A stretch of DNA of 25,355 nt from a virus (Duplodnaviria > Heunggongvirae > Uroviricota > Caudoviricetes), in IMG/VR virus record IMGVR_UViG_2563366824_000002, positions 1 through 25,355 of that record. One strand, given 5' to 3'. The notes under the pieces were generated by a model. It saw nothing but the letters and a program-made list of their open reading frames with translations, searched no databases and was not told the DNA's origin. Of this stretch, positions 1,958-19,572 are shown in pieces. A program made the position numbers and the translations under genes. The number at the start of each line of letters is the position of its first letter. Positions within the stretch are counted from its first letter, which is position 1.

Positions 1958-1984
1958 ACAATAAAAAAGGAGCCTGTAGCTCCC
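1958..1984 (-). terminator. Probable intrinsic terminator downstream of the DGQHR gene (minus strand)
   Basis: GGAGC-CTGTA-GCTCC hairpin (1969..1983) followed on the minus strand by TTTTTTATT, lying between the DGQHR ORF stop (2061) and the TraR-like ORF start (1907). Confidence 0.5.
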
Positions 1985-2060
1985 TGATGATTTTGCTTTT
2001 CATGTTCACCGTTCCTTAAAGACGCCGTACAGCATGCTGATATGAGACAATGTTGATTCA

Positions 2061-3125: not shown

Positions 3126-3276
3126 ATATCCTCCTGTTTATTATTTATCTTCTCAGCCAGCCGCTGTGCTTTCAGTGGATTTCTGATAACAGAAAGGCCG
3201 GGAAATACCCAGCCTCGCTTTGTAATTGAGTAGACGAAAGTGATCGCGCCTACCCGGATATTATCGTGAGGATGCG

Positions 3277-4744: not shown

Positions 4745-5041
4745 TTATACCTCTGAATCAATATCAACCTGGTGGTGAGCAATGGTTTCAACCATGTACC
4801 GGATGTGTTCTGCCATGCGCTCCTGAAACTCAACATCGTCATCAAACGCACGGGTAATGGCTTTTTTGCTGGCCCCGTGGCGTTGCAAATGATCGATGCA
4901 TAGCGATTAAAACAGGTGCTGGGGCAGGCCTTTTTCCATGTCGTCTGCAAGTTCTGCCTCTTTCTCTTCACGGGCGATCTGCTGGTAGTGACGCGCCCAG
5001 CTCTGAGCCTCAAGACGATCCTGAATGTAATAAGCGTTCAT
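4745..5041 (-). pseudogene. gam: gam (RecBCD inhibitor, GamS-length) interrupted by an in-frame TAA
   Basis: Minus-strand reading from the ATG at 5041 gives [44 protein letters not shown], then TAA at 4907..4909, then in frame [15 protein letters not shown]…[10 protein letters not shown] to the stop at 4745..4747. Lambda has GAA (Glu) at this codon; here it is TAA. Both halves are under 60 aa, so the gene is absent from the ORF track. Confidence 0.8.
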
Positions 5042-5179
5042 GGATAAACTCCTGAAATTTTGATGTGCGGATCCAGACAGTGCGTTAACTGCATAGTTGT
5101 TTGAATGAACTCGCTTGATTAATCAAAATGTTGGATCACACTATGTCTTGCTCAAAATCTGATAAATAAGGTGTCTAGA

Positions 5180-5485
5180 ATGCTGATTGATAAGTTAAAG
5201 TCTTCTCCGATGTACCCAACCGCAGAAATGGGTAAGCAGTCGAAAAAGAATCATTGGTATGTAAGGGAAAAGGGGAGTGATCAACCGCAAGACCAGACCT
5301 GGAGAGCTTGGTGGGAATCTCGCTCGCTTGGCAAAGGCCATATCAATTGGAGATCTACATGCGTAGCAGAAAATGTACTCGATCCATTCAATCCGCCATC
5401 TCGGTTTGAGGTTGATTTCAAAGCCCCTGATGGGAGTATCTACAACCTTGAATTTGCTTTGGCTCCACACGGCCCAAACAAGTGA
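5180..5485 (+). CDS. Hypothetical protein (about 101 aa), rightward-oriented in the leftward early operon region
   Basis: ATG at 5180 with AAGG about 9 nt upstream. Product is Trp-rich and charged (MLIDKLKSSPMYPTAEMGKQSKKNHWYVREKG…) with no recognisable family. An alternative minus-strand ORF (5195..5470) covers the same DNA, so the coding strand is ambiguous. Confidence 0.35.
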   Translation: MLIDKLKSSPMYPTAEMGKQSKKNHWYVREKGSDQPQDQTWRAWWESRSLGKGHINWRSTCVAENVLDPFNPPSRFEVDFKAPDGSIYNLEFALAPHGPNK

Positions 5486-5489
5486 GTAG

Positions 5490-5780
5490 TTAGTGGCTCA
5501 GACCACCGCCAGTACCATTCAGGTAAACCTCCACGAGCAAATCTTTTGTGTACGTTCGTTCGATGCCGCGATGCAAGTAAAGCCGACCGCGCAAATTAGC
5601 TGATGCCGTCCAGGTACCATCTTTGTGTTTAACCAGCATACCTGGCCGGACGGCACCGCGATTAACGGTCTGAGTTCCGTAATGTTGATGAACCATAAAA
5701 ACTCCTGCCCGTAAGCTGGGCTGCTGAACATATAGAGACTTCTGCGCGTATTCAGGCGGTGCATGGCCGCCGGTTGTCAT
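5490..5780 (-). CDS. Hypothetical protein (96 aa), first ORF downstream of the putative P_L
   Basis: ATG at 5780 with GAGG about 10 nt upstream. Codon usage looks E. coli-like (CTG, GGT, CGC). It occupies the position taken by N in lambda but has no arginine-rich N-terminal motif. Family not recognised. Confidence 0.35.
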   Translation of the reverse strand: MTTGGHAPPEYAQKSLYVQQPSLRAGVFMVHQHYGTQTVNRGAVRPGMLVKHKDGTWTASANLRGRLYLHRGIERTYTKDLLVEVYLNGTGGGLSH

Positions 5781-5976
5781 AACTAAGCCGCCTCGTTGAA
5801 GCGACTAAGGTATGAAATGTTGAGTTAATTTCAGCTGGTCACACCGACGTTCACGCGTCCGTTTCACCCCTCGCACTCCCCGAAGCCTGCTGAAATTCAA
5901 ACTGTGGATCTAAGCGGTCATCGCAACGGTGAATCAGGTAGTTGCCGTATCGTTGTGTTGTTGCGATGAACTTATT

Positions 5977-6050
5977 TAAAACTATAGTTGTTTTATCGTT
6001 AACAACAAAAGTTGTTTTATTGGTTGTTTTAGATATAACTGGTTGTATTT
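5977..6050. promoter_or_regulatory. Putative O_L operator cluster and P_L
   Basis: Clustered dyad-like repeats built from AACAAC / GTTGTT half-sites (AAAACTATAGTTGTTTT, AACAACAAAAGTTGTTTT, TGGTTGTTTT, ACTGGTTGT). The same half-site family recurs in the cI-cro intergenic region. Confidence 0.5.
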
Positions 6051-6291
6051 AGGATGGATTTATTTTGTGACTTGAATCGCATAGCGATAACTGAAGCGAG
6101 GTTATGGTGGTTTTTTTAACGGTGTGTGTGATGAGGGGAGGGCAAAAGAAAACCCGGCACGGTGACCGGGATTCTTACGCCGTTAGGTAAAGATATTATT
6201 GCGGTGGCTTAATATTACTACCTAGAGCAAAGATAGGAATTAGTTCTTTACTGAATGAGCACAATGCCCAGTTGATAATTTTTAATTGGTA

Positions 6292-6981
6292 CTACCCATG
6301 CTTCCTATATGTCTGCGGCATGCTCCCAATAACCTTACCGAAGATGAACACCCGGTTCATCTCGTCTTTCTCGATCGGGTCCCACGGTGAGTAGCTTTTG
6401 TTATCAGAGATGACCAGCAGCTTATCCTTCATCATTTGCAGGCGCTTTACATGGGCTGTGTCGTCGTACAGAAACGCATAGATACCATCACCGTCGAAAG
6501 ATTTAACTGTGATATCAACGAACAGCAGATCACCTGGTTCGATCGTTCCTGACATGCTGTCACCACGCACGTTAATGATGCGGATATTTTCCGCCTTCCT
6601 ACCATCGAACATGTGACGAGCATCGTCAAACGAGTACTCAACCGAGCGTAGAACTTCTACAAACTCACGGTTGATGACTCCCGGCCCAGCACTGACTTCT
6701 ATATCAAGAACGTCAATCTTGAAGTATTTGGAATGGCTGACAGTTGATTGTATTGGTTGCACTGTACTGTCTGACATATTTCCAACGCCAGAAGATAACC
6801 ATTCTGCGCGCACACCCAAAGCGTTCGCGATCTCCACGATTTTAGTTGTTTGATTAGCTTTCCCTGTTTCGATTTTCTGAATAGCAGCCTGGCTAACCCC
6901 GACCAAATCCCCAAGCGCCTTTTGTGTAAGGCCTCGCGCTAATCTGGCTTCTTTAAGTCTTTCTGAGAGTGTTGTTTTCAT
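6292..6981 (-). CDS. cI: CI-like prophage repressor (N-terminal XRE HTH, C-terminal S24 LexA-like autopeptidase)
   Basis: From MKTTLSERLKEARLARGLTQKALGDLVGVSQAAIQKIETGK (HTH). Ala-Gly cleavage site in EVSAGPG. S24 motifs RGDSMSGTIEPGDLLFVD (Ser) and HVKRL (Lys). The ATG at 6981 sits about 10 bp from the first operator, compatible with a leaderless P_RM-type transcript; the longer ORF-track start at 7047 lies inside the operators and is rejected. Confidence 0.85.
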   Translation of the reverse strand: MKTTLSERLKEARLARGLTQKALGDLVGVSQAAIQKIETGKANQTTKIVEIANALGVRAEWLSSGVGNMSDSTVQPIQSTVSHSKYFKIDVLDIEVSAGPGVINREFVEVLRSVEYSFDDARHMFDGRKAENIRIINVRGDSMSGTIEPGDLLFVDITVKSFDGDGIYAFLYDDTAHVKRLQMMKDKLLVISDNKSYSPWDPIEKDEMNRVFIFGKVIGSMPQTYRKHG

Positions 6982-6987
6982 AGTCCA

Positions 6988-7056
6988 AATGTACAACCAA
7001 GGTTTTATTCCATCAAACGAAAATGGTTGTTGACTAAAAACAACCATAGTTTTAAT
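6988..7056. promoter_or_regulatory. Putative O_R operator cluster with divergent P_RM / P_R
   Basis: GTACAACCAAGGTTTTAT and the inverted repeat ATGGTTGTT-GACTAAA-AACAACCAT (7023..7047) lie between the divergent repressor and Cro-like genes. Confidence 0.55.
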
Positions 7057-7085
7057 CTTGATTCAAATTAACCACGGAGGTTGTT

Positions 7086-7316
7086 ATGAACCCAGCTATC
7101 AAAACAGCGATCAGTATCGTTGGTTCACAAAAGAAACTGGGCGCTGCTTGCAAAGTTTCACAGCAGGCCGTCTATAAGTGGCTTCACAACAAAGCAAAGG
7201 TATCCCCTGAACATGTCGGCAGCATTGTTACGGCTACTGGTGGAGTAGTGAAGGCATACCAGATTCGCCCGGATCTTCCGAAGTTGTTTCCACACACCGA
7301 AAAGAACGCAGCTTAA
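7086..7316 (+). CDS. cro: Cro-like HTH regulator (YdaS-like, 76 aa)
   Basis: Divergent from cI, with GGAGG 6 nt upstream. Small HTH protein (…KKLGAACKVSQQAVYKWLHNKAKVSPEH…) resembling the Cro/YdaS family. Confidence 0.75.
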   Translation: MNPAIKTAISIVGSQKKLGAACKVSQQAVYKWLHNKAKVSPEHVGSIVTATGGVVKAYQIRPDLPKLFPHTEKNAA

Positions 7317-7328
7317 ATTTCCATTTCA

Positions 7329-7341
7329 CGCTCTTTAACAA
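7329..7341 (+). promoter_or_regulatory. boxA-like antitermination element (candidate nutR)
   Basis: CGCTCTTTAACAA immediately downstream of cro matches the boxA consensus (CGCTCTTTA / rrn TGCTCTTTAACAA) and is at the nutR position of lambdoid phages. No convincing boxB hairpin was identified. Confidence 0.4.
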
Positions 7342-7385
7342 TAAGCAATCAACTTAACAGTCAATTCAAACTAAAGGAGTCAATT

Positions 7386-7925
7386 ATGCAACCACTTACA
7401 TACCAACAGACTAGCGGATTTAGCCCGACTGCGGTGATAAATCGTTCTCAAACAAAACAGGTGCCAGGCCACGAAAAAATCCGTGATGCCGTCCGCGCCT
7501 GGTCGGCTGTAGATAATCAGGATGTCGTTGCCACACTCATTGTGAATGAGTATCGGGAGCAGGGCGGCGGCACCATCGATTTCCCTGATGATGTCAGCCG
7601 TGCACGCCAGAAGCTGTTCCGCTTCCTCGATAACAAATTCGATTCTGAAAAATACCGAAATAACGTGCGTGAACTGACCCCGGCAATTCTGGCGGTACTA
7701 CCGCTGGAATATCGCGGTTACCTGGTTGAGCAGGATAGCTTCATGGCTAGGTTGGCTGAAATGGAAAAGGAACTCAGTGAGGCAAAACAGGCTGTCATTC
7801 TCAACGCACCACGCCACCAGAAACTGAAGGAAATTAGTGAAGGTATTGTGTCGATGTTTCGTGTGGACCCAGATCTGGCTGGTCCATTGATGGCGATGGT
7901 TACTACCATGCTGGGGGCGATATGA
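7386..7925 (+). CDS. YdaT-like protein in the cII position (179 aa)
   Basis: AAGGAG RBS. The segment TPAILAVLPLEYRGYL resembles what I recall of Rac YdaT. It sits between the Cro-like gene and O, where lambda encodes CII. Confidence 0.55.
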   Translation: MQPLTYQQTSGFSPTAVINRSQTKQVPGHEKIRDAVRAWSAVDNQDVVATLIVNEYREQGGGTIDFPDDVSRARQKLFRFLDNKFDSEKYRNNVRELTPAILAVLPLEYRGYLVEQDSFMARLAEMEKELSEAKQAVILNAPRHQKLKEISEGIVSMFRVDPDLAGPLMAMVTTMLGAI

Positions 7926-8011
7926 CAGGTTCAGAAATGGCGAAAGCCGGTCTGCTGGAACAGAACCGACTTTCAGGTGCAAATCGTAACACACTCATTG
8001 CGGGAGGAATT

Positions 8012-9878: not shown

Positions 9879-12800
9879 ATGACCACTGTGAATAAAAAGT
9901 TAAAAAAAACTGCATCTGGCGCGATTACATGGTCAGTAATTGTTACCCAGATATTATCTCCAGTTTCTCTTTCTTTGATTCCGGCAAACAGTTTTGCATC
10001 GTCTGATAATAAAGATGTTACGCAAATTTATGCTAGCGATGAGCGTGCAAATAAAGTGGCCTCATTTGCAGTAAGTGCAGGTCAGAGTCTGGCGAATAAT
10101 AATGCAAGTAGTTTTGCTGTAAATACTTTATCAACTCAGGCGACAAAAGAGGTCGTCGATTGGTTGCAACAATATGGCAATGCGCGCATCAAGCTTAATG
10201 TCGATGATTCTTTTTCCTTGAAGGATTCATCATTCGACTTTTTATATCCATGGCTGGATACTCAGGATTATGTGCTATTCAGTCAAACATCACTACATCG
10301 TACTGATGACCGTAATCAGACCAATATTGGTTTGGGGATTCGTCATTTCACTCCTGATAATGCAATGTTGGGTGCGAATGTTTTCTACGATTATGATTTA
10401 AGTCGCAGCCACTCTCGCGCAGGTTTTGGGGTTGAGTACTGGAGAGATTATTTCAGGCTTGGTGTAAATACCTATTTTGGTTTATCTGACTGGAAGGACA
10501 GTCGGGATATTGATGATTATCTGGAAAGACCCGCAAATGGCTGGGATTTTTCTGCTGAAGGATGGCTACCTGCTTATCCGCAATTAGGGGCATCTATTCA
10601 GTTTGAAAAATATTATGGTAAAAATGTCGGATTATTTGGAAGCGATAATCTGCAGGAAAACCCTTACGCAGTTACTGGGGGAATTTCTTATACACCAGTT
10701 CCTCTGATTAAGTTTTCTGCACAGCATAAGCAAGGACAGAGCAACGTTCACGATACAACCTTTGGTGTTGAGTTTAATTACCGCCCAGGCGTTTCCCTTG
10801 CTGAACAGCTTAGCAGTGACAATGTTGCAGTTATGCGAGAAGTCCAGAACCGGCGTTATGATTTTGTTGAACGAAATAACAACATTGTTCTGGAGTACAA
10901 GAAGAAGCATGCACTGAAAATCAGCTTACCAGAGTCTGTTCAGGGGGATGGCGAATCAATCATCCCTGTAACACTGACAATCAACAATGCCAGTGGTGGT
11001 ATCAAGTCTGTACAGTGGAATGATAGTGTATTCACTGCGGCTGGCGGTAAGATCAGTGGAAATGGCACATCATGGCAGGTCACTTTACCGGCTTATAAAA
11101 GCGAAGGTGTAAATTCGTGGAATGTTGGAGCCACGGTCCAGGATAATAGAGGCAACGTTTCCAACTATGCGGTGATGAATATTAGCGTTATTAATAGTGG
11201 TGTCTCGACAGCGGATTCTTCTTTTACGTTGGATGGTGATTCGTCTCCGACGATCTCTGCTGATGGTCAATCCACTCATCCAATAGTATTAAGCCTGAAA
11301 GACAGTAACGGTAAGGCATTAACCGGACTGGCTGATGACATTGAAATGTCAGTGGAATTTACTGCGGATAGCAATAGTGCTCGACAGCGTGAAACGGTAA
11401 CTGCCCCGTCATTAGGCGCGGTAGAGGAAATCTCTGCTGGTGTATATCGCTCTGTTCTGACTGCTGGTTCGCAGGCTGGTACGGTACGTGTAACTGCAAA
11501 AGTAATGGATAAAACATTTACTCTCAGTATTAAGCAAACAGCAGCAACAGAACCTGATTCTGAGGTCAGTGCTGTTTTAACCGCTGCACCAGCAGAACAG
11601 GTAGTTGGTTACAATATCAATCTACAACTGGCAGTGAAGGATTCACAAGGAAATGCAATCACTGGTGATAACACTCTGAGCTTTTATGCTCTTAACCAGG
11701 CAGAAGGAGTCGAGTTTGGGGCTGTAACGGAAAAAGACGGTGTCTATAGCGCGACAGTAACTTCAAAACGAGCTGGTAAGATTCGGATCGGTGTTAAATC
11801 GGGTAGTCACAATTTCTCAGGTATTGAGAAAGAAATCTCCTTTATTGAAGATCGAACACAGTTCGCATTCTCTCGTATTGAAGCCAGTAAAAATAATGCA
11901 TTGGCTGACGGCAAACAACAGAATACGGTGACTGTAAGCCTTGCAGATCGTTTCGGCAATGTTGTGCCCGGTTATGCTGTTACGCTGTCCTTACCTGCGG
12001 GGGTAACTCAAGTTGGTGGTGAACATGCTGTGTCAACTGACGAAAACGGTAATGCTGTTTTTGCGTTAATAAGCTCCACTCCGGGTTCTTACGTGATTAA
12101 AGCTCATGCTGGTTCTCAGATGTCTACTGAGTTAACAGTAACCTTTGCATCAAATATGATCGGAGCTTCACTGTCACTGACGCCTGGAAACAGTAGCTTA
12201 ATTTCCAATATTCCTGCTAATGGTAAGGATGCTGCGGTATTGAATGTGCAACTGACAAATACGAATGCGTCGGTCAATGGACAGAAGATTCAGCTCATCA
12301 CCTCATCTGAAGGATTGTCTGTACCGACAAATATCGTGACTGATTCAACAGGGCATGTTTCCGTACCACTTACAACGGTGAGAGCTGGTGAGTATACGGT
12401 GGCTGCACGAGTGACTGACGGTTCCCATAGTGTGGAGTCTGGCAGCGTTAAGTTAACTTTTGTACCAGATGCTGCTTCCGCAGAACTTACTATGAGTACA
12501 TCAAAACAGCAGATTGTGGCCGATGGTAGTGAAAGTGCAACAGTGGACATTCAGTTGGTTGATGCCAATAACAATGCGTTTACAGGCGATGTGGATTTAA
12601 CGGTTACACCATCGACGGGAGCATCATTGACCAGTAGTAAACTGCAGTTGGATGCTCATGGACAGGCAACAACGCAGTTCACAGCATCGAAATCAGGCCA
12701 GTACACAATTCAGGCTGAGTATGTTCTAGATGGGAAACGTATAACCGCAAGCAAAAATATTGATGCCGTGACGGATGTGAAGGAGGCTGTGTTGGAGATC

Positions 12801-13430
12801 ACATCATCTGCATCTTCGGCTGTAGTGAGCGATACCAACAATCTGATATTTACGTTACTGTTGAAAAGTACGTCAGGCGAAGTATTAAGTGGTCGAGTAT
12901 TGAATATCAAGGCATCTGGGCCGTCCAAATATGGTGCGTTGGTGGTTGATAAAACCACTGTAACGACTGATGAGTATGGTCTGGCTACGGTAAGCGTACA
13001 TGGTCGAACGGCTGGTTCGTATAAATTAACGGCGACCTTAGATGAACTTGGCAGTGATGTTAGTGAGGTGAAGTCATTCTCTCTGTATGCTGATGAGGCA
13101 AATGGAGTATTGACACTGCATAAAGATGGAGGCTATGACACAGATGATGGTACTCCAGTGGGGGTTTATGCCCGATTTGTTGACCATTTCGGCAATCCGT
13201 TATCTGGTACGGTTGAGTTTTCTGCTGGTAGTGAAGATAGTCCAAACTCTCAACGGGTTAAAATGGAGCCTGCTACAGTAACGTTACACTGGACAGGTAA
13301 TGCAGCCTCGGAGTTCAGCACCTATGAAAGCGGTTATCACTGGATTAAGGCCAAAATAACGAACAGCAAAAATACATATGAGAAAACAATAAGGACTTAT
13401 GTTGTAAAGCTCCCTGAAAAGGATAGTTAA
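9879..13430 (+). CDS. Invasin/intimin-family inverse autotransporter adhesin (1183 aa) with a long array of Ig-like (Big) repeats
   Basis: N-terminal signal peptide. Beta-domain strongly resembles invasin (…EGWLPAYPQLGASIQFEKYYGKNVGLFGSDNLQENPYAVTGGISYTPVPLIKFSAQHKQGQSNVHDTTFGVEFNYRPG…RRYDFVERNNNIVLEYKKK). Followed by about 800 aa of repeated roughly 100-aa modules. Preceded by a 240-bp AT-rich intergenic region. Confidence 0.85.
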   Translation: MTTVNKKLKKTASGAITWSVIVTQILSPVSLSLIPANSFASSDNKDVTQIYASDERANKVASFAVSAGQSLANNNASSFAVNTLSTQATKEVVDWLQQYGNARIKLNVDDSFSLKDSSFDFLYPWLDTQDYVLFSQTSLHRTDDRNQTNIGLGIRHFTPDNAMLGANVFYDYDLSRSHSRAGFGVEYWRDYFRLGVNTYFGLSDWKDSRDIDDYLERPANGWDFSAEGWLPAYPQLGASIQFEKYYGKNVGLFGSDNLQENPYAVTGGISYTPVPLIKFSAQHKQGQSNVHDTTFGVEFNYRPGVSLAEQLSSDNVAVMREVQNRRYDFVERNNNIVLEYKKKHALKISLPESVQGDGESIIPVTLTINNASGGIKSVQWNDSVFTAAGGKISGNGTSWQVTLPAYKSEGVNSWNVGATVQDNRGNVSNYAVMNISVINSGVSTADSSFTLDGDSSPTISADGQSTHPIVLSLKDSNGKALTGLADDIEMSVEFTADSNSARQRETVTAPSLGAVEEISAGVYRSVLTAGSQAGTVRVTAKVMDKTFTLSIKQTAATEPDSEVSAVLTAAPAEQVVGYNINLQLAVKDSQGNAITGDNTLSFYALNQAEGVEFGAVTEKDGVYSATVTSKRAGKIRIGVKSGSHNFSGIEKEISFIEDRTQFAFSRIEASKNNALADGKQQNTVTVSLADRFGNVVPGYAVTLSLPAGVTQVGGEHAVSTDENGNAVFALISSTPGSYVIKAHAGSQMSTELTVTFASNMIGASLSLTPGNSSLISNIPANGKDAAVLNVQLTNTNASVNGQKIQLITSSEGLSVPTNIVTDSTGHVSVPLTTVRAGEYTVAARVTDGSHSVESGSVKLTFVPDAASAELTMSTSKQQIVADGSESATVDIQLVDANNNAFTGDVDLTVTPSTGASLTSSKLQLDAHGQATTQFTASKSGQYTIQAEYVLDGKRITASKNIDAVTDVKEAVLEITSSASSAVVSDTNNLIFTLLLKSTSGEVLSGRVLNIKASGPSKYGALVVDKTTVTTDEYGLATVSVHGRTAGSYKLTATLDELGSDVSEVKSFSLYADEANGVLTLHKDGGYDTDDGTPVGVYARFVDHFGNPLSGTVEFSAGSEDSPNSQRVKMEPATVTLHWTGNAASEFSTYESGYHWIKAKITNSKNTYEKTIRTYVVKLPEKDS

Positions 13431-13442
13431 CAAAACAGAATA

Positions 13443-13469
13443 GGGAGGGCTAAGCCCTCCCACTTTTTA
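13443..13469 (+). terminator. Intrinsic terminator after the adhesin gene
   Basis: GGGAGGGC-TAA-GCCCTCCC hairpin followed by ACTTTTT, 13 nt after the stop codon. Confidence 0.7.

Positions 13470-17462: not shown

Positions 17463-19572
<2,110 letters not shown>

Follow-up and report, generated by a model that had tools for sequence, protein, structure and literature searches.

Phage lambda passes the intrinsic terminators of its left arm with RNA polymerase modified by the N protein. In the N-less lambdoid phages HK022 and HK639 this role falls to the put RNAs, which act in cis, require no protein and bind the beta' zinc-binding domain; to our knowledge, no other well-characterised phage RNA reprograms bacterial RNA polymerase by itself, and the put-like RNA of HK639 was reportedly characterised experimentally by King and colleagues in 2011. 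About ten put sequences were known in 2022 (PMC9378689), and a further cis-acting antiterminator RNA, the EAR element of Bacillus, has been described outside phages (PMC8191782). Here we analysed a stretch of 25,355 nt from a Caudoviricetes virus (IMG/VR record IMGVR_UViG_2563366824_000002, positions 1 to 25,355; hereafter the window), and in particular a conserved non-coding RNA element of approximately 100 nt located in the leader of its predicted P_L transcript. The window corresponds to a lambda-like prophage, located at the DLP12 site, in which no phage-encoded N protein serves the early operons. The existence and conservation of the element are solid, and its position suggests that it may be a put-analogous, protein-independent antiterminator RNA of the left arm, accompanied in the right arm by Nus loading at a boxA alone, a combined reading to which we assign a probability of roughly 45%.

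The comparison with lambda outlined a lambdoid layout of the immunity region, with a boxA at the nutR position after cro and an exo-bet-gam module that, together with its terminators, is lambda-like. The window differs from lambda in having no N gene, no boxB and no left-arm boxA, and in presenting Kil in the N position. The lack of a recognisable N gene had already been noted in a first-pass annotation made from the sequence alone, which described the first gene after P_L as a 96-aa open reading frame (ORF; 5490-5780, minus strand) without an arginine-rich N-terminus; both observations held. The idea that this ORF might be a disguised N was rejected, as it matched PHROG 294 (phrog_294; 'Kil protein for bacterial septation inhibition', a family of FtsZ/septation inhibitors) with an E-value of 1.4e-36, residues 20-95 aligning with positions 4-79 of the 83 in the profile. 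Its likely real start is the ATG at 5697, and the Kil coding sequence in RefSeq maps to 5491-5697; in relatives, the upstream in-frame ATG at 5780 begins a short leader ORF ('MTTGGH..'; 21 codons in phi80), which in the window is fused in frame to kil. The alternative 81-aa frame (5519-5764) matched no family among the Pfam and PHROG profiles. Searches of the entire window using tblastn with four queries (lambda N, the P22-like N of the Leclercia locus L090, the phi80 'N' and HK022 Nun) returned no N or Nun homologs below E 0.4. A 31-aa arginine-rich mini-ORF (5900-5805, minus strand, TTG start, ..VKRTRERR..) was also rejected as a mini-N: it has no Shine-Dalgarno sequence and presents an in-frame TGA at codon 6 in divergent copies.

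Positions 5000-7500 of the window are 100% identical to a locus of Escherichia coli AST217, a lambdoid prophage at the argU/DLP12 site with the order intD ... exo-bet-gam ... repressor, cro, ydaT-like, O, P ... quuD, ompC-like porin. This prophage is degraded: RefSeq annotates an internal stop in gam and an IS21-family insertion in the identical locus. The same immunity region was found with 95-99% identity in six isolated phages (PhiR34_1, PhiR47_2, PhiR5_1, PhiR26_1, IdasGreatGrand and Turner), which are annotated in the order Gam - Kil - (P_L) - optional toxin-antitoxin or defence genes - cI - Cro - 'cII' - O - P. All six are plaque-forming and share the N-less layout of the window. The annotations of the identical RefSeq locus and of all these phages include no N, and the sole annotated antiterminator of the complete PhiR34_1 (44.6 kb) is Q. 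In both the window and PhiR34_1, kil is the only gene between P_L and gam, apart from an oppositely oriented ORF in the window. Since viable phages also lack N, the N-less layout appears to be functional and not a product of decay, and the loss of the left-arm antitermination module, one of three alternatives put forward in the first-pass annotation, is unlikely. A 104-aa ORF of unassigned function (5171-5485, plus strand; phrog_16212, E 1e-69), oriented against the P_L operon, replaces the spacer usually found between kil and gam and shortens kil by its last ~12 codons.

The leftward operon nonetheless retains intrinsic terminators. A terminator scan identified one directly downstream of exo (3194-3216, minus strand), which by position presumably corresponds to lambda tL3, and a second one before the xis/int end (1967-1985, minus strand). 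The same leftward-operon terminators were detected in the viable PhiR34_1. Because an N-less phage keeps these terminators, another device is needed for the distal left operon to be expressed from P_L.

The P_L promoter is predicted within the O_L/P_L region (5973-6060, minus strand), which contains operator-like AACAAC/GTTGTT repeats, with a -35 TTAACG at 6002-5997, a -10 TAAATA at 5978-5973 and a start at ~5967. Its placement is based on homology to P_R, the 19 nt at 5976-5994 being a 95% inverted match to the P_R stretch 7037-7055, and on the putative pL annotated in HK639. The heteroimmune phages 4A7, 1W, D2, PhiR68_2 and Perceval align to the window only from 5967 (5967-5966) leftwards, with 96-97% identity. 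Because these alignments begin there, the predicted P_L +1 would be a classic mosaic joint, and this boundary is independent support for the predicted start at ~5967.

The predicted P_L transcript comprises, in this order, a 5' hairpin (5968-5919), the conserved element (5922-5825), a hairpin that buries an AUG (5815-5777) and kil. The 5'-terminal hairpin (5919-5968, minus strand, from folding) is formed by the 9-bp inverted repeats that the first-pass annotation had singled out, CATCGCAAC at 5919-5927 and GTTGCGATG at 5960-5968. These repeats are indeed present, but they do not constitute the conserved core, as the 5' arm of the hairpin changes between lineages of heteroimmune phages. Likewise, of the alternatives suggested at the time, a cis-acting put-like RNA is the one favoured by comparative evidence, but the relevant RNA adjoins the repeat and is not a put homolog. 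The absence of a left-arm boxA was borne out, with none found within 3 mismatches on the minus strand of 5700-5975. The leader contains no nutL.

The element (5825-5922, minus strand) lies immediately 3' of the 5'-terminal hairpin and spans approximately +46 to +143 of the predicted transcript. RNAalifold outlined two adjacent stem-loops joined by invariant G-rich linkers (Figures of pairing below refer to alignments A2 and A4, with pair counts on 22 distinct sequences and a two-hairpin consensus of 80 nt, A4 columns 6-85). SL-I (5916-5872, minus strand) presents a CGC/GCG clamp and a 9-bp stem with an invariant loop, AAUUUCAG, at 5897-5890, and SL-II (5868-5837, minus strand) a 10-bp interrupted stem. 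The 3' tail of the element, CUGAAAUU (5834-5827, minus strand), is complementary to the SL-I loop; six base pairs between them are kept in every sequence, with changes only to G.U, making a loop-tail pseudoknot possible.

The two-hairpin model pairs 96.9% of alignment cells, compared to 28-41% when the partners are slid by 1-3 columns, and 89.2% for the single-sequence minimum-energy alternative, a long-range helix, in which the middle helix reaches 77%. Four pairs have changed on both sides (19-38 AU/CG, 20-37 GC/AU, 60-79 AU/GU/GC and 64-75 AU/GC). Furthermore, a number of G.U pairs, either invariant or derived, could form only in the P_L-sense strand, which points to an RNA signal rather than a DNA palindrome. 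While the stems vary, conservation is high in the internal loops and linkers (ACCGCUUAGA, GGGGAGUGCGAGGGGUGAA and GUGACC). The first of these segments, ACCGCUUAGA, was considered as a degenerate boxA and discarded, as it departs from the consensus at more than 3 positions. The element is non-coding, with a stop in each sense frame in every row of the 98-nt alignment. A covariance model of the element (R1) detected a single copy in the window, at 124.9 bits. This copy carries a unique A at 5905, where all other variants present a G, that breaks the SL-I pair 17-40 and fits a decaying prophage. A 27-bit R1 match inside the stf (side-tail-fibre) gene of PhiR34_1 (L322 39578-39660, plus strand) contains only a generic SL-II-like hairpin and was judged to be a chance match.

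The element is widespread in E. coli. A query encompassing leader and element (5817-5967) matched 2185 of 5426 complete E. coli genomes (~40%), usually with one copy per genome and always without an annotated feature. Carriers include O104:H4 and ST131 genomes, and in the one O157:H7 record examined the element lies between a SIR2 gene and kil, beside a YdaS/YdaT module. Fetched loci and pattern scans provided 25-29 distinct variants, most of them of E. coli type with 92-100% identity. Copies with ~81% identity were identified in Trabulsiella guamensis (L086), Enterobacter intestinihominis (L103) and contigs from IMG/VR and metagenomes (L179, L217, L261, L320 and others). What follows the element differs among carriers: E. 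coli has kil, L179 has an HNH-like ORF, and L086 and L103 have small ORFs; the element is hence tied to the promoter, not to a particular downstream gene. Rfam 15 contains no family for it, with nothing better than E 1 in 5000-8000, and viral and metagenome pattern scans for more divergent homologs returned only the three known SL-II types. Literature searches on N-less lambdoid phages and new antiterminator RNAs, which did not cover the work of King and colleagues from 2011 on other leaders, revealed nothing describing the element.

The closest parallel to this arrangement is put. In HK639 (NC_016158), a 'putL-like antiterminator RNA' is annotated directly after the putative pL. The leaders of HK639, L086, L103, L179 and L217 share their first ~60 nt (CCATCGAAACGAAACATCGACAGCTGAG..GCCAGCGGCGAAGTGGAG), and all of them except L217 also have a common 3' flank (TTTACCAGCAGCTCTTTGCGAGGGGCTGACGG.. 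/ TTTACCAGCAGCTCTTTGCGAGGGGCTGACGGTAAACAA). Between these flanks, HK639 presents its 84-nt put-like core (L305 10328-10245), whereas the others present the element (104 nt in L086, 1305-1202), in what looks like a cassette replacement at the HK639 putL-like slot. Like put, the element belongs to an N-less lambdoid phage and lies no further than ~150 nt into its P_L transcript. Its size is ~80-100 nt, it may fold into two adjacent stem-loops in which unpaired nucleotides are conserved, and its divergent copies sit inside the same flanks as the HK639 core. The two differ in other respects. Covariance models in both directions detected no sequence or structure homology; the element is longer (~100 nt versus ~70-84 nt), has a possible loop-tail pseudoknot where put has a stem-I triplex, and contains no NANNAT -10-like pause motif. 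Furthermore, the terminator read-through conferred by put requires no protein and is blocked by mutations in the beta' zinc-binding domain, whereas a function for the element is suggested by its position.

Membership in the put family was rejected with a put covariance model (R2) built from seven sequences (HK022 putL and putR, HK639, CobraSix, S9-5, phiEt88 and UPF_BP1). This model recovers HK022 putL and putR, HK639, Lelliottia L107 and Pseudescherichia L092; conversely, R1 gave no match at the HK022 or HK639 put sites. A putR-like second copy of the element was sought with R1 in the P_R operon, and none was found. The put model likewise detected single, left-arm copies in the HK639, L107 and L092 loci searched, and because these put loci with a YdaT module are also left-arm-only, the missing right-arm copy is no argument against a put-like role. 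Prophages with YdaT modules therefore present at least three solutions behind P_L: N with boxA-boxB (L090, with a P22-like N, and L102, with the boxB of lambda), put (HK639, L107 and L092) and the new element (the window, L086 and L103).

Downstream of the element, the kil-leader hairpin (5777-5815, minus strand) pairs UCAUA with UAUGA and thereby sequesters AUG 5780; it is followed by a small GGCGG/CCGCC hairpin (5771-5755). Identified by blastn and alignment A5, it shows compensatory changes at 4 pairs, and the upper stem covaries in sequences from E. coli, Enterobacter, Citrobacter, phi80 and HK225. It probably serves as a translational or processing control for kil. According to blastn, this stretch is homologous to the sequence following 'N'/tL1 in phi80 and preceding kil in HK225, so that the place of N is occupied in the window only by the 5' hairpin and the conserved element. 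In phi80 itself (L122), the first ~60 transcribed nt are common to the HK639, Enterobacter and Trabulsiella leaders, the P_L leader contains a boxA-like CTGCTTTTTAACAAC (1826-1845), and the gene historically named 'N' (2186-2482, 98 aa) has no arginine-rich motif and maps to PHROG 25091, of unknown function. A homology between the phi80 leader and the element that seemed plausible by eye (ATGACCTGTTAAGACCCCTAC..GTTGGCGCTGACC) is unsupported, as R1 returned nothing there with filters off.

Taken together, the equivalence of its slot with that of put, its association with the promoter and the need to pass the left-arm terminators argue for a cis-acting antiterminator role of the element. We envisage that transcription would start at ~5967 and that the nascent transcript would form the 5' hairpin and then the two-stem-loop element, possibly locked by pairing of the SL-I loop with the 3' tail. 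In the manner of the HK022 and HK639 put RNAs, the element might then act in cis on the polymerase that transcribes it, and this polymerase would read through 3216-3194 and 1985-1967, allowing expression of kil-gam-bet-exo and of the xis/int end. In the right arm, neither N nor boxB would be required for the boxA to recruit the Nus complex of the host, NusB/NusE included, and the outcome would be an rrn-type resistance to Rho-dependent termination. Both steps, antitermination by the element (from its position only) and use of the boxA, are inferred.

The boxA in question had been described in the first-pass annotation as lying just downstream of cro, at the nutR position, and the exact sequence CGCTCTTTAACAA is indeed found at 7329-7341 (plus strand), 13 nt after the cro stop codon and 45 nt before the next gene (7386). 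This rrn-consensus boxA (CGCUCUUUAACAA) matches YGCTCTTTAACAA perfectly, which no other site in the window does, and base composition predicts ~0.002 exact matches per window. Compared with the rrn boxA, UGCUCUUUAACAA, it coincides at 12 of 13 positions, only the first base differing, and it is closer to the rrn consensus than the boxA of lambda itself. No boxB was detected: the 69-nt spacer between cro and the next gene, which includes the stretch 3' of the boxA (7342-7385), is unstructured (minimum free energy -5.6 kcal/mol, z +0.48), and hairpins are present at the corresponding spot in the relatives L090, L093 and L102. The same motif occupies the same position within unrelated flanks in Leclercia L090 and Escherichia sp. 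L093.

The presence of this boxA had been taken to imply N-type antitermination, which does not follow, as boxA alone nucleates a NusB/E-NusA-NusG-SuhB complex that protects rRNA and CRISPR transcripts from Rho and also autoregulates suhB (PMC7665894). The window resembles these boxA-only systems (rRNA operons and CRISPR arrays) in its consensus match and in that it would need no phage protein. It differs from them in the setting of its boxA, which is flanked by two protein-coding genes within a translated operon of a phage. N-independent, rrn-type Nus loading would be the simplest reading of the site. In many genera, including the HK639 locus, a GCCGC(C)-loop-(G)GCGGC hairpin (GCCGCTTAACGGCGGC or GCCGCCTAAACTGCGGC) lies directly upstream of ydaT-like cII genes (L305 13310-13330; L088, L089, L091, L092 and L105; E. 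coli type-B loci such as L210). This hairpin, which lacks a U-run, sits where a nutR or putR would be.

Several results weigh against the proposed roles of element and boxA. The minimum-energy fold of the window copy is a different, long-range pairing that forms an extended helix, and folding energies are no better than those of shuffled sequences (z -0.05, -0.62 and -1.40); the control with shuffled alignments can, moreover, be exceeded through relatedness alone. The double changes derive from only two or three lineages and thus represent few independent events. The family is narrow, the metagenome scan having added only 2 loci. R2 found no match in 5700-6000 of the window or in PhiR34_1, its best score in the window being 14 bits, elsewhere, and the R1 search returned no second copy in the P_R operon of either the window or the complete PhiR34_1. 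In the right arm, the six phages and ~110 loci show no difference at the boxA junction (100% identity), so that its conservation is uninformative on selection. Furthermore, at the cro-ydaT junctions examined in heteroimmune E. coli phages that carry the same left element, the boxA is missing and the hairpin GCCGCCTAAACTGCGGC is present instead, related to one in HK639 and in many Enterobacter prophages.

One alternative concerns the right arm, and we consider it doubtful yet worth weighing. The boxA might be no antitermination signal, but a relic of a nutR that has lost boxB and N, or a site for suhB-like leader repression of the ydaT-like gene that would also promote Rho termination. Baniulyte and colleagues reportedly showed in 2017 that suhB is repressed via a boxA in its leader, which provides a precedent, and the boxA of the window lies 45 nt upstream of the ydaT-like start. 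Relatives combining boxA and hairpin exist, and L090 also has a P22-like N, suggesting that boxA-boxB-N is likely ancestral; the boxA-less junction type of phages with the same left arm also speaks for this alternative. Against it, a perfect 13/13 consensus, better than the boxA of lambda, argues against decay, and the boxA is retained in six viable phages.

For the element itself, the main rival, which we regard as unlikely, is a leader RNA that governs the stability, processing or translation of the early left transcript, for instance through an RNase III or RNase E site or by timing the toxic Kil, without modifying the polymerase. In lambda, an RNase III-sensitive hairpin in the P_L leader controls N translation. 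The covarying hairpin that sequesters AUG 5780 just downstream indicates that the leader does contain translational or processing signals, and the extended long-range helix predicted as the minimum-energy fold of the window copy would also suit this role. Against it, the element stays by P_L while the next gene changes from kil to an HNH-like ORF or small ORFs, and the divergent copies are kept from the next start codon by the 3' flank that follows put in HK639. Such a role would, in addition, leave an N-less phage without a way past its left-arm terminators.

It is improbable that the element is instead a nut-like loading site for an unrecognised protein antiterminator, whether encoded by the phage and unrelated to N, or supplied by the host from outside the Nus set. 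Conserved loops and linkers with variable stems are typical of RNAs that bind a protein or polymerase, and relatives encode several small early ORFs with no assigned function. The four carriers listed (L086, L103, L179 and L217) nevertheless share no co-occurring candidate protein, their downstream genes differing in each case; the interval between P_L and gam contains only kil in PhiR34_1, and kil plus an opposite-strand ORF in the window, and no homolog of N, Nun or the phi80 'N' was found. Least probable of all is a left arm with no processive antitermination, in which the terminators would be leaky or irrelevant, int would have its own promoter and the element would be a hitch-hiker of P_L-kil: the weak folding z-scores and an identity of 92-100% within E. 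coli, explicable by recent spread, agree with this, but in other genera the copies with 81% identity have preserved both hairpins by compensatory changes while their immediate flanks were replaced, and in HK639 the same slot is filled by a put-like element that bears an antiterminator RNA annotation.

The remainder of the immunity region conforms to a repressor - YdaS - YdaT module. The LexA-like repressor reported in the first-pass annotation is a cI-type protein of 229 aa (6292-6981, minus strand) in which both an HTH_3 (PF01381) and a Peptidase_S24 (PF00717) domain were found with Pfam; RefSeq designates it 'S24 family peptidase' in the identical AST217 locus. An intrinsic terminator after cI (6153-6170, minus strand; CCCGGTCACCGTGCCGGG and TTTTCTTTT; terminator scan) separates its transcript from O_L/P_L. 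The O_R/P_R region (6982-7085, plus strand) presents a -35 TTGACT at 7030-7035, a -10 TAATCT at 7053-7058 and an operator palindrome at 7023-7047. It is followed by a Cro of the YdaS type with an HTH domain (7086-7316, plus strand; PF15943, E 4.7e-17) and by a CII-like regulator with a YdaT domain (7386-7925, plus strand; PF06254, E 8.5e-30; phrog_163, 'CII-like transcriptional activator'). The window thus resembles the immunity modules of the Rac/CP-933P type in its YdaS-type Cro and YdaT-type CII equivalent, and an O157:H7 prophage with a YdaS/YdaT module carries the same RNA element. The literature on those modules differs in dealing with their proteins, and the P_L-leader RNA is unannotated in any record examined. 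The gap between the cI terminator and P_L (6060-6170) is an insertion hot spot that is empty in the window; in relatives, including L004, L005, L123 and L319, its cargo comprises GevT/GevA (GevAT), HipA-like toxin-antitoxin, ASCH and SIR2 genes.

Further along the right arm, a large inverse-autotransporter (intimin/invasin-like) gene (9879-13430) is inserted between P and the nin region, and a strong bidirectional terminator following it (13443-13461) lies in the path from P_R to the Q gene. In addition, positions 17717-17839 (plus strand) are a full-length match to the Rfam family isrC, an Hfq-binding small RNA (150 bits, for a gathering score of 39), which is the sole Rfam family above its gathering score in the whole window.

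Should the element function as a put-analogous antiterminator, it might represent a second family of polymerase-binding antiterminator RNAs, structurally unrelated to put and swappable as a P_L cassette, and the boxA-only site would leave neither early operon with a need for a phage-encoded antiterminator; we advance this broader proposal only tentatively, considering it unlikely as a whole. A second, unrelated RNA in the put slot would mean that this solution arose more than once, and the element would be a new natural ligand with which to probe the RNA exit channel and the zinc-binding domain of the polymerase. It is short and portable, and viable phages carry it. A boxA-only nutR would extend host Nus-factor antitermination to the operon of an N-less phage, and the element would explain how very common prophages of E. 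coli, including those of O157:H7, O104:H4 and ST131, express their recombination, kil and excision genes without N.

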